From Uncultured Candidatus Berkiella sp. (lineage in GTDB: Bacteria > Pseudomonadota > Gammaproteobacteria > Berkiellales > Berkiellaceae): a DNA stretch of 41,309 nt. The stretch is taken from NCBI GenBank assembly GCA_964535225.1, contig CAZHSJ010000001.1, forward strand, positions 1 to 41,309. The letters are read 5' to 3'. The notes under the pieces are model-generated. The model ran no database searches, was not told where the DNA came from, and saw only the letters and a program-made list of their open reading frames with translations. The position numbers and the translations under genes were made by a program. Positions 24,227 to 27,049 of the stretch are shown here, piece by piece (position 1 is the stretch's first letter; every line of letters begins with the position of its first letter).

Positions 24227-24883
24227 ATGAAAAAGCAAACATTATTTATTGTATTAATTATTGGGATCGCTATTAGCATTGGGATCTGGCGCGATAAGCA
24301 TGACGTTGTTTCTAGCAACGATACAACTACGATGTTTGCGGCAATGCCCTTGTCTGTGGGAACTGCCTTGCCTTTACCCCATCAGTTACCCAAATTCACC
24401 TTAACCGACACCGACGGTAAGCCATTTTCTAATGAAGGATTGAGAAAAAAATGGTCTTTTTTATTTTTTGGGTATAGCCATTGCCCCGAAGTATGCCCTG
24501 CAACCTTAGGTACCTTAAATCAAATTTCACAACGATTGGGTACTAATCCCCATGTTCAATTTATTTTTGTGTCCATTGATCCTGAGCATGACACCCCCCA
24601 GATACTCAAAGCGTATTTGAAACAAGATCAATTTTCCAAAGCTAGTATTGTTGGCTTAACCGGCGATAAGCAGCATGTTTCTACGCTCGCTCGCAAGGTT
24701 GGCGTTTATGTTCAAGACGAACAAAAACTACCCATTAGCAAGGAACATATTGAACATGGTGGTGCCATTTTATTAATTAACCCTGAAGGTAAATTAATGG
24801 CTATCTTTACCACCACAGACAAACCTGGTGCGATTGTGAAGGACTTTAAAGACATTATGCATCGTTATGCTAATGCGGTGTAA
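24227..24883 (+). CDS. SCO1/SenC copper chaperone
   Basis: FFGYSHCPEVCP, VSIDPEHD and conserved His in IEHGGAILLINPEG. Confidence 0.95.
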   Translation: MKKQTLFIVLIIGIAISIGIWRDKHDVVSSNDTTTMFAAMPLSVGTALPLPHQLPKFTLTDTDGKPFSNEGLRKKWSFLFFGYSHCPEVCPATLGTLNQISQRLGTNPHVQFIFVSIDPEHDTPQILKAYLKQDQFSKASIVGLTGDKQHVSTLARKVGVYVQDEQKLPISKEHIEHGGAILLINPEGKLMAIFTTTDKPGAIVKDFKDIMHRYANAV

Positions 24884-24900
24884 ATAATCTAAAATAAATT

Positions 24901-24940
24901 CCCTCATTCCCCACTTTACCGCAAGCGGGGAAATGGGTGG
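24901..24940. repeat. Degenerate BoxC/REP-like palindrome between convergent genes, possibly the cox operon terminator
   Basis: CCCTCATTCCCCACTTTACCGCAAGCGGGGAAATGGG with a CCGC-AA-GCGG core; followed by TGGTTTTGTATTT. Confidence 0.45.
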
Positions 24941-24964
24941 TTTTGTATTTCGCTATACCCACGT

Positions 24965-25621
24965 TTATCTTAAATTTATTTTTCTTGTAGGGCGTTTTTG
25001 TTGTTGCATAGCGAGTTGTTTTTGTTCTTTTATATATTGAAATTGTGAATAGATACCTCTTGGGCTTAACCCCTGAATTTTTTGCTGTTGCTCTTTATTT
25101 ACCACTTGTCTTGTACGCACGCTAGAAGAAGCCAAGTGCATACCGGATAAGGTTTTAAACCAATCCCCAATGCTGATCACTTTTTCAATGATTTTTGAAG
25201 CAAAAGTACTTAAGCCATAAGTAAGGGAACCCGTTAAAATGCCAGATACCATCATCAGTGGCCAAGAATAACCCATTAAAAAACCGTAACCTGCTCCAAG
25301 TGCTGAGCCCGCCATACCGATTAAAATTGAATTTAAATGCCGATTTTTTGCTTCTATGAAACGTTCTAATTGATGCGTTGTTTGCGTGAGGTGCGCTGTG
25401 TCTTGTTTAAGTGCAGAGGTTTTGCCCGTAAGTTGCTCAAGTAATTGGCCTCTTTCAATTAATTTTTGCGCCTTAAGTGCTTCTAACTTTTTCACCTCGG
25501 CCATTGTTTTTTGAATTTCAGCTAAATCCGCTTCATCTTGTAGGGGATTATCCATAGGTAAAAGATCTTTTGTTTTTTTTGGCGGTGTTGTCTTTGCTCT
25601 TTGCCTCTTTTTTCCCATCAT
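24965..25621 (-). CDS. Synaptobrevin/VAMP-like R-SNARE-motif membrane protein (putative secreted effector)
   Basis: Strong SD (AAGGAGG). Residues 33-93 carry heptads centred on Arg57 (KLIERGQLLEQL..KT..L) and end L.R....KN, followed by two Gly-rich hydrophobic segments. Confidence 0.75.
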   Translation of the reverse strand: MMGKKRQRAKTTPPKKTKDLLPMDNPLQDEADLAEIQKTMAEVKKLEALKAQKLIERGQLLEQLTGKTSALKQDTAHLTQTTHQLERFIEAKNRHLNSILIGMAGSALGAGYGFLMGYSWPLMMVSGILTGSLTYGLSTFASKIIEKVISIGDWFKTLSGMHLASSSVRTRQVVNKEQQQKIQGLSPRGIYSQFQYIKEQKQLAMQQQKRPTRKINLR

Positions 25622-25702
25622 AACCCCTCCTTTTTACTCAAGTTACGCTGAGTTTACTTTATTTTTTTTATAGGGGGTACTGATAATTTATAACCAATGA
25701 AG

Positions 25703-27049
25703 CTATTTGTTAGGCGGTGTGCCTTGGGCAAGCATGGCTGATTTTCGTCTGGTTTGACGAAATAATTCGTGCAATAGGGGGGCCTCAAATGAGGTAAACT
25801 CAAAGACGGGACACCTTACCCCCTGCTGATCTGACAATTTTTCTAATTGTTGCAAGATACATTGTTTTGCTAAAGCGAAATTACTGGCTTTTAATTTTAA
25901 TTCAACAAAAAAGGGGGTGGATTGTACTAACTGATATTTTTCAATCCCACCGCTTGCTTTACCAATAGCCAAATGAATGTCATCGGCATATATCGTTTTT
26001 AAACTCAAATTTGATCCCTTTTTTTGAAAACATAACATGTCTTCACAACGGCCAACAATATGGCTTACCGCCAATTTAGTGCTGCCACAAGAACAGGGCG
26101 TTTTCTTTAAACATAAAATATCATTCATGCGGTAGCGCACTAAAGGCTGCATACGACGATGCAACGTGGTAATTACCGGGATGAACTTATCTTTATGTTC
26201 ATCCACCCATTCTTTTTCAATAAAATAATTATCCTCGTTTAAGTGCATTGTACCCATTTCACACGTGGTCCCTAAAAACCCTTCTGCACATTGATAAAGT
26301 TGGTGAACATTTTGTTTAAAGGTGGTTGCAATTAATTTTTCCTCTATGGGCGTGAGTACCTCATACGTTGCAACTAGCTTTTTAGGCGTAATAGGCAGCT
26401 TTTTACCATTATATAAATGGGCTATTTGGCACAACGTTTGCACCGGCGCCACGATCACGTCAGGCGAAAACTGCGTTAAAGCCTGCACGTAGTTCTCAAG
26501 ATTTGATTTTATATCAAAAAATTGCCACTTTAAAAAGGGGGATTTAATTGTGGTAAAACAAGGGGTTTTAGATAAATAAAAAACCGCAATTTTTTGCGGC
26601 CATTTATTTATAGGTAGTAATTGACTCAATATAGAAGTGAGATCTTTATATTTTTCACTGTCGGTAAATAAATAAATACTCTCCTTGCCTGTGGTGCCAA
26701 GGGAATAGTTTGGGTTGTAATTGAGCGCTTGTAAATAGCCGCCTAAGCAAGCCTCTTGCGTGAGCTTTTCAACATTCATCTTTTCAAATTGTTCATCCAT
26801 TAAGATTTTATCGATGTAGGGTAAATCATAAAACCCGAGGTTGGCCTTTTCTTGATAAAAAGGAATAGTAGCCTTCACCTGTTTCATCAGGCGCTTTAGT
26901 TTACGTTGTTGATTAAAATAGCGGATAGATGACGGTAAAGATCCCTTCAGTTTTGCTATTTGGTACGAAAACCAAAAGCTATAGATTTCCATGTTTTGTT
27001 CCACAAGATCACAAATATGATGTAAAGAATCATAGAGGATATTGCGCAA
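25703..27049 (-). CDS. Putative adenylate-forming enzyme (coenzyme F390 synthetase / PaaK-like), divergent
   Basis: IPFY, VHQLYQCAEGFLGTTC..G.MHLNED..FIEKEW, P.IT...R..QPLVRYRMNDIL, C.CGS and I.GR.ED motifs. The real start may be the ATG at 26992. Confidence 0.8.
   Translation of the reverse strand: MRNILYDSLHHICDLVEQNMEIYSFWFSYQIAKLKGSLPSSIRYFNQQRKLKRLMKQVKATIPFYQEKANLGFYDLPYIDKILMDEQFEKMNVEKLTQEACLGGYLQALNYNPNYSLGTTGKESIYLFTDSEKYKDLTSILSQLLPINKWPQKIAVFYLSKTPCFTTIKSPFLKWQFFDIKSNLENYVQALTQFSPDVIVAPVQTLCQIAHLYNGKKLPITPKKLVATYEVLTPIEEKLIATTFKQNVHQLYQCAEGFLGTTCEMGTMHLNEDNYFIEKEWVDEHKDKFIPVITTLHRRMQPLVRYRMNDILCLKKTPCSCGSTKLAVSHIVGRCEDMLCFQKKGSNLSLKTIYADDIHLAIGKASGGIEKYQLVQSTPFFVELKLKASNFALAKQCILQQLEKLSDQQGVRCPVFEFTSFEAPLLHELFRQTRRKSAMLAQGTPPNK

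Follow-up and report, generated by a model that had tools for sequence, protein, structure and literature searches.

The R-SNARE gene of the DNA stretch analysed in this study (41,309 nt from an uncultured Candidatus Berkiella species, here called the window) is apparently, as judged from sequence comparison, the remaining second half of a gene for a fused double R-SNARE, a history that the original prediction had missed. The open reading frame (24965..25621, minus strand) encodes a protein of 218 aa, or 217 aa from the second ATG, which consists of a C-type R-SNARE module standing alone. Its closest homologues are proteins of 350–377 aa with two complete modules arranged as motif-hairpin-linker-motif-hairpin-tail; the window protein is 45–69 % identical to the second of these modules, only 27–32 % identical to the first and about 25–35 % identical to the single-module members of the family. 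The fused form (R-SNARE–TM–TM–R-SNARE–TM–TM) was found in six genomes (G001, G002, G003, G008, G013 and G014). Very probably, a single gene was first duplicated in tandem, with the two copies translationally coupled, the copies were then fused, and this lineage finally lost the first module; four natural states are found at the one locus, i.e. a single gene, two coupled genes, a fused gene with an inner start and the second half only, in addition to outright loss. The family itself was already known; what is new is this gene history (duplication, fusion, inner start and halving), along with a paralogue that has a polar −3 layer. Neither such duplication, fusion and halving of a motif-hairpin arrangement nor a membrane protein in which two R motifs have a hairpin anchor each was found in the openly accessible literature searched.

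In a tree of three neighbouring oxidase genes from 20 genomes (G016 and the other genera of the family were left out), the fused genomes, the window genome (G000) and G006 formed one clade (bootstrap 98), with the window genome nested among G014, G008 and G013 (bootstrap 96). The 81 bp intergenic region upstream of the window gene contains a non-coding remnant of 39 bp (25645..25683, minus strand) that corresponds to the linker between the modules of fused relatives and is in frame with the ATG but interrupted from it by stop codons that follow the remnant. Its match to the linker of G013 (L013/L005) scored 55, against 31 for the best of 300 shuffles; the match was marginal for G008 and not significant for the other four fused genomes. 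We take this remnant to mark the deletion of the first module. The unfused state is found at the same locus on a metagenome contig (L148) carrying the F390-like gene, an N-type gene (P0034) and a C-type gene, where the stop codon of the complete P0034 gene overlaps the ATG of the C-type gene, which has a Shine–Dalgarno (SD) site of its own (−6.9 kcal/mol). Over the 45 residues before the contig end, the C-type product is 91 % identical to P0010, which is sister to ten fused or derived C modules (98/82). A history in which the window gene was never fused was rejected by AU tests, both when the fused modules were held together as a clade without the window protein (p 1e-116) and when the latter was placed as sister to the stand-alone C gene (p 5e-4), and the linker remnant also speaks against it. 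Nor is the short form an assembly artefact, because the breakpoint is bridged by contigs from independent runs: five of the six DNA or untyped runs, from other studies, span it (X2, X3, X5, X7 and X4), and X11 stops short of the breakpoint. One of these runs (X2, record 2, matching window positions 25645–25677) also has a contig from a relative with a fused-type linker, which shares its sample with the C-only species. Two further R-SNAREs were seen. L031 (G014:C26) is a second, non-syntenic single-module R-SNARE, placed close to where the C clade begins. P0014 (342 aa) is a fused double form whose second motif has Met at −3 and lies outside the C clade; it is possibly an independent duplication, its branch being long and its placement unsure.

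All ten distinct full-length fused proteins have a Met at residues 146–155, and in the six fused genes for which DNA was available this inner Met stands behind an SD-like site in every case (−3.7 to −7.1 kcal/mol); 3 of 46 other internal Mets had a site at or below −3.5. When the seven upstream codons were recoded synonymously, the observed SD strength had p values of 0.02–0.23 (below 0.05 in three of the six genes) and a combined p of 0.0009, or 0.003 without one member of a sister pair, values to be read with the relatedness of the genes and the use of window-genome codon usage for all of them in mind. As synonymous sites are near saturation between the fused genes and the window gene, retention of the inner SD suggests that it is used, and we regard an active inner start in the fused genes as fairly probable; alternatively, the inner SD may be a relic. 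The site is not a by-product of the Lys-Lys-Glu codons of the N gene: the matching tail Met in the unfused P0034 lacks an SD (0.2), against −6.9 at the start of the C gene itself.

The start of the window gene is the same site as the inner start of the fused genes, in strengthened form. The SD-like AAGGAGG (25626..25632, minus strand) has a free energy of −10.5 kcal/mol against the anti-SD heptamer, lies at the position of the inner site and is stronger than that of any fused relative. The second ATG (25616–25618) is probably the start codon, since it lies 7 nt from AAGGAGG, compared with 4 nt for the first ATG, and aligns with the inner Met of the relatives; in an independent assembly the protein was likewise called at 217 aa (P0002). 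Upstream of the gene, a promoter scan found no sigma-70-like promoter. Eight loci (L012, L013, L014, L016, L018, L020, L015 and L148) share a conserved box, ending TAGGTC(A), 37–76 nt before the first ATG, which is likely to be a promoter or regulator site; a reverse-complement half-site of it occurs in four single-module loci (L008, L009, L011 and L019). The box is absent before the window gene, and a scan of the window genome gave four matches of at least 14 bits, the best at 18.5, compared with 29–37 bits for true sites, and thus no strong copy. It went with the deletion, which counts against expression of the window gene. It could therefore be argued that, with the first module and the box deleted, the remaining gene is poorly expressed and heading for loss, as the want of a promoter match and the outright loss of the gene in G006, of the same clade, would suggest. 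We consider this improbable, given the open frame, an SD of −10.5 against −3.7 to −7.1 in the fused relatives, an end branch (0.21) that is not lengthened and is like that of P0004, and only one in-gene variant across the sequencing runs examined. Two runs of RNA or possibly RNA, furthermore, each have a single contig from a 3.2 kb stretch, and it covers the start of the window gene; as the reads may derive from DNA and from either strand, the support that they lend to expression is weak. DNA of the organism is present in metagenomes from freshwater, biofilm, sludge and bioreactors.

The identification of the protein as a VAMP-like R-SNARE was borne out. Residues 31–103 match the Pfam Synaptobrevin family (PF00957; E 1.3e-7, 31.7 bits against a cut-off of 26.4), the match that the original prediction had proposed as a check, so that the protein is a homologue of R-SNAREs and not a generic coiled coil; no NCBIfam match was found for it. 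It is the sole PF00957 match above cut-off in its genome, and none was found in 14 control genomes. A second candidate in the window genome, G000:C74 (E 0.003), is an unrelated protein of 590 aa. The alignment to VAMP8 and VAMP4 is free of gaps, as predicted, and places Arg57 on their central Arg. PDB matches of the single sequence were weak, and six of the seven were VAMPs, aligned without gaps on Arg57; the Atlas leads at 0.83 were both Synaptobrevin clusters. Against a profile of 28 other motifs of the family, from which the window motif was left out, that motif scored 43.3 bits, the next-best protein of the genome 8.5 bits and the best of 1000 shuffles, in which layer and non-layer residues were kept apart, 14.1 bits. 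When the profile of six C-type modules was compared with the PDB, 23 R-SNARE chains came out on top (best VAMP8, 1e-7) and no Q-SNARE was found, and the profile of single and N-type motifs matched VAMP4 (2e-19), VAMP2, VAMP7 and VAMP8 well above Sec22b (1e-7), a preference that points to endosomal or post-Golgi partners. The likeness to VAMP7 that had been drawn does not make it VAMP7 proper, as only about 30 residues precede the motif and Pfam gives no longin match.

The two hydrophobic segments that had been predicted were confirmed as hydropathy peaks at residues 99–117 (25271..25327, minus strand), directly after the motif, and 122–140 (25202..25258, minus strand), both of which are also helical in the structure model. 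They are predicted to form a hairpin that would return the C-terminus to the side of the motif; the Pfam match runs unbroken from the motif into the first helix. The model itself is of low confidence (mean pLDDT 54, pTM 0.20), with helices at residues 26–116 and 120–158 and a turn between them, and that of the fused protein P0003 (pLDDT 55, pTM 0.24), read for secondary structure only, has a long helix plus hairpin twice. Inc proteins are defined by a bilobed hydrophobic segment of about 40–60 residues, and the proposed resemblance to them holds for the shape of the anchor (residues 99–140); it does not extend to homology, as no Inc family was matched in Pfam at E values up to 10 and the relatives are Ca. 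Berkiella proteins. For 70–80 % of the membrane effectors of Dot/Icm systems the predicted topology places both termini inside, in most cases by way of two helices (PMC12981334), so that a link with Inc proteins is not needed.

The hairpin anchor is also not as unusual as had been supposed. Bona fide SNAREs have been described in the Legionellales by Neveu et al. (bioRxiv 10.1101/810531), whose cluster 3 consists of hairpin-anchored R-SNAREs, among them KRG19470.1 of Ca. Berkiella cookevillensis and OJV90465.1 (bioRxiv 10.1101/810531; PMC9546365 Table S2), bacterial proteins of this kind being listed there from three sequences so far; a ‘Synaptobrevin’ of B. aquae is likewise listed as a putative effector (PMC9803151 S1/S4). 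The window protein, which has the same R motif, two-helix hairpin and cytosolic tail, belongs to the same family as cluster 3: two of its database hits (P0016 and P0025) are, by eye, close to the two printed cluster-3 sequences, and single-module members are found at the locus of the window gene. Each printed member, however, has just one module, in which −3 is Met and +6 is Phe, whereas the window protein is a diverged second paralogue. The longin-R-SNARE-CAAX proteins of Legionella and Aquicella (clusters 0 and 1 of Neveu et al.) are also R-SNAREs of Dot/Icm bacteria, but by their description a CAAX end gives them a lipid anchor, and their N-terminal domain is longer. A related protein of the CAAX clusters, OGT53257.1, is reported to form a ternary complex with syntaxin 1 and SNAP-25 (bioRxiv 10.1101/810531), and two are described as having ‘two R-SNARE motifs in a row’ (PMC9546365); in the Berkiella tandem, unlike these, the repeated unit is the motif together with its hairpin, and there is an inner start. 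VAMP4, VAMP7 and VAMP8, which gave the best PDB matches, share the zero-layer Arg and a motif leading straight into a membrane helix, but have a one-helix tail anchor and, in VAMP7, a longin domain. IncA and LegC2, LegC3 and LegC7 resemble the window protein as secreted membrane coiled coils acting on SNAREs, with bilobed or two-helix anchors (PMC12981334); they are described as mimics (of Q-SNAREs, in the case of LegC), whereas the window protein is a true R-SNARE homologue.

The C-terminal tail (24968..25201, minus strand), largely disordered in the model and with a basic end, is a candidate secretion signal. The ends of the protein had been called NLS-like, a description that is not supported: the basic N-terminus goes back to the start of the second paralogue, and the C-terminus is a family-wide basic tail, which would fit a secretion tail better than an NLS in a protein that is predicted to be membrane-bound. 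The net charge of the last 12 residues averages +2.5 in the family and +0.6 genome-wide, and at +5 the window protein is in the top 3 %; its last three residues include a hydrophobic one (Leu at −2), and it lacks an E-block. With a profile of the family tail, 34 other proteins of the window genome scored at least 6 bits, and 22 of these were Pfam-less, ankyrin or LRR proteins, effector-like classes that made up 3 of 20 random proteins (p 6e-4; six other proteins examined lay outside the set and were left out of the count), an enrichment to which composition may contribute. Ankyrin, LRR and orphan proteins of the genome have tails resembling that of the family, and a similar tail is found on a eukaryote-type mitochondrial carrier homologue of 266 aa (L084:1-801, i.e. 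G000:C317:34-834, plus strand; PF00153, E 6e-8). A P-x-F/Y motif lies 29–38 residues from the C-terminus in 20 of 34 family members and is followed by the basic end; the two together are a candidate Berkiella secretion signal. The P-x-F motif, present in 21 of the 34, is absent from the window protein, and as a plain regular expression it was not enriched at C-termini genome-wide (66 versus 66 proteins).

A Synaptobrevin match was found in 24 of 36 genomes of the family Berkiellaceae, the window genome included (23 of 35 without it), and in 14 of the 16 other genomes of the genus. In a survey of the class outside the family (an even draw, with one genome left unscored), 5 of 298 genomes had a PF00957 match; four of these matches have open frames, all in genomes with DotA and none with a hairpin after the motif, and the fifth has internal stops and is from a genome without DotA. 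Among 1.84 billion representatives searched with phmmer there were 23 hits, which by inspection all comprise the motif and a hydrophobic segment, and no relatives were found in viral contigs or in the first metagenome scan. Broad occurrence of homologues in free-living bacteria, which would have told against the original prediction, was not found among the genomes searched. The window genome has DotA, three copies of DotI and IcmS above cut-off, together with a DotB split over two contigs, and DotA is present in 34 of 36 family genomes. As the R-SNARE was confined, in what was searched, to Dot/Icm-bearing bacteria, a host-directed effector is the best reading of the gene, as had been predicted.

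Recent acquisition from a host is not supported; the gene is old, vertically inherited and syntenic in the family. The nearest named loci, in Ca. Berkiella MAGs, have the same gene order, comprising zinc transporter genes, an orphan membrane protein (missing in L007), the F390-synthetase-related gene and the SNARE gene, and in two of these three loci the oxidase cluster also adjoins the SNARE gene. In the window, the upstream neighbour (25703..27049, minus strand) encodes the F390 synthetase-related protein (TIGR02304), and the convergent downstream neighbour (24227..24883, plus strand) lies at the end of the cytochrome c oxidase cluster, its product being presumably SCO-like in view of its CPxxC motif; we use both genes as synteny markers and imply no functional link for the former. 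Between the converging genes (24884–24964) is a stem-loop of about −20 to −23 kcal/mol, a candidate two-way terminator. Elsewhere in the window, 27164–28579 (minus strand) encodes a protein of 471 aa without Pfam or NCBIfam match, with three hydrophobic peaks and a basic C-terminal end, an effector candidate whose synteny is kept across many genomes of the genus, and 33377–35035 (minus strand) encodes a protein of 552 aa, also without a match in either database. The R-SNARE gene is missing at an intact locus in 2 of the 16 other genomes of the genus (G006 and G004), so that it is dispensable.

A stable chromosomal place beside housekeeping genes across the genus, unlike that of many patchy effectors, might suggest that a host-derived SNARE has been domesticated as an inner-membrane protein that works inside the bacterium and is never secreted. 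We regard this as very improbable, as the gene occurs only in DotA-bearing genomes of the samples, its product has an effector-like tail, and no bacterial Q-SNARE partner was found in the window genome with the queries used (Qa and Qbc of related genera); a PF12352 search of this genome likewise gave nothing credible. Pfam searches for Q-SNAREs (PF05739 and PF00835) were negative in all 36 genomes and silent in the controls, a result uninformative as to absence, since they missed a Qa-SNARE that was found later. In another genus of the family, G042 encodes a Qa-SNARE with a CAAX end (L063) and a Qbc-SNARE (L138), Qa-SNAREs being present in 3 of 36 family genomes, all of this genus. L023 (G005) is a syntenic single-module member in which the zero layer is Asn instead of Arg.

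The SNARE motif of the window protein extends from layer −7 (Leu33) to layer +8 (Leu85) (25367..25525, minus strand), as established by profile, alignment and layer scoring. Layers were placed from Arg57 (25451..25453, minus strand), which is invariant in two family alignments, with Arg56 as the zero layer of VAMP2. Arg57 is flanked by Leu layers (Leu54, Leu61 and Leu64). Ten of the 15 non-zero layers are Leu, Ile, Met or Val and three are Thr, with Glu at −3, Lys at −2 and Leu at +6, and the motif keeps the zero-layer Arg and hydrophobic residues at +1, +2, +4 and +8. Where only one deviation (Glu47) had been claimed, three layers depart from the VAMP pattern, i.e. Glu47 (−3), Lys50 (−2) and Leu78 (+6), and a strict heptad count from Arg57 puts Lys50 at the −2 layer that had been assigned to Ala51; the corresponding residues of VAMP8 are Met, Asn and Phe. 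In all ten C-type motifs the −3 layer (25481..25483, minus strand) is Glu or Gln, whereas each N module (7 of 7) and each single-module motif (22 of 22, 15 of them with Met) has a hydrophobic residue there; in these counts the script did not anchor G008_N and P0022, and the second motif of P0014 (Met) was kept apart. The +6 layer has changed from Phe to Leu in four C-type motifs, the window motif among them. N motifs score 72–79 bits and C motifs 26–50 bits with Pfam. Despite their diverged motif, the C modules are under constraint (dN 0.21–0.61 in the motif and 0.13–0.41 in the hairpin, with dS from 1.3 to saturated), and it is the stem branch of the C clade that is long. In the published numbering of VAMP2, V39/V42, M46, A67 (+3), L70 (+4), F77 (+6) and L84 (+8) are layer residues, M46A weakens the N-terminal half of the neuronal complex, and F77A costs about 12 kBT in its C-terminal half (PMC4744192); Leu at +6 would be a milder change than Ala. 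Both −3 and +6 belong to the layers of small volume in the SNARE bundle (PMC11344281). A C motif with a polar −3 layer may thus form a weaker or re-specified zipper.

Our working hypothesis, held tentatively, is that the window protein is a secreted R-SNARE of the vacuole and a weakened fusogen. Dot/Icm would export it, a step that we consider likely, and the hairpin would insert in the vacuole membrane so that the two termini face the host cytosol. The R-SNARE helix would then zip with host endosomal Q-SNAREs, bringing host vesicles to fuse with the vacuole, with zippering that is probably less tight for the C paralogue than for the first (N) paralogue. Pairing with host Q-SNAREs, inferred because no bacterial Q partner was found in the window genome with the queries used, is reasonably probable; that it would drive rather than block fusion is the weakest step. 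Against this hypothesis are the lower Pfam scores of C motifs, the altered −3, −2 and +6 layers, the lack of an E-block and of P-x-F, the dispensability of the gene and the absence of the upstream box, and no test of a hairpin-type member was found in the passages of the literature searched. The vacuoles in which cultured Berkiella multiply travel to the host nucleus, and those of B. cookevillensis do not take up Rab5a (PMC6507137), so that fusion with early endosomes is not suggested.

A close rival is that the secreted and anchored protein is a decoy, whose altered layers hold host Q-SNAREs unproductively and shield the vacuole from lysosomes. A −3 layer that is polar in all ten C-type motifs and has been fixed since the duplication, the change at +6 in four of them and the long stem branch of their clade would fit such a role, and SNARE-like membrane effectors of Legionella and Chlamydia are reported to block fusion as well as to drive it (PMC12981334). 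We think this possible, though rather doubtful, and chose the weakened fusogen in view of the zero layer and of the direct link between motif and membrane helix, which have been kept although a decoy would not need them, and because this is the only R-SNARE found in the genome, where it occupies the place held by a canonical motif in single-copy relatives. Alternatively, the C paralogue may act as a tether or regulator that pairs with the N paralogue or, in the manner of homotypic IncA pairing, with itself, and not with host Q-SNAREs, leaving the window copy as a homo-oligomeric tether. Translational coupling of the N and C genes in L148, their fusion in six genomes and the greater conservation of the hairpin than of the motif in C modules are consistent with such a partnership; it appears unlikely when set against a layer pattern that is still R-SNARE-specific and the persistence of the C module, alone and intact, in several populations of the window species, which argues that N is not needed.

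If the inner start is used, it may be, although we put this forward only as a speculation, that a fused gene yields two products, a long, two-headed R-SNARE anchored by four helices and a short form, i.e. a fusogen together with its own tuner or decoy, and that the window species uses the short form alone; if true, the species would be a natural test of the action of the rewired motif on the vacuole. The hairpin-anchored R-SNARE emerges as a stable, vertically inherited gene in about two-thirds of the genomes of the family, and the window gene itself is the less surprising end of the series found at its locus. This natural series would allow side-by-side tests of motifs as to whether bacterial SNAREs drive or block vacuole fusion, and also bears on the effect of a polar −3 layer on SNARE pairing.
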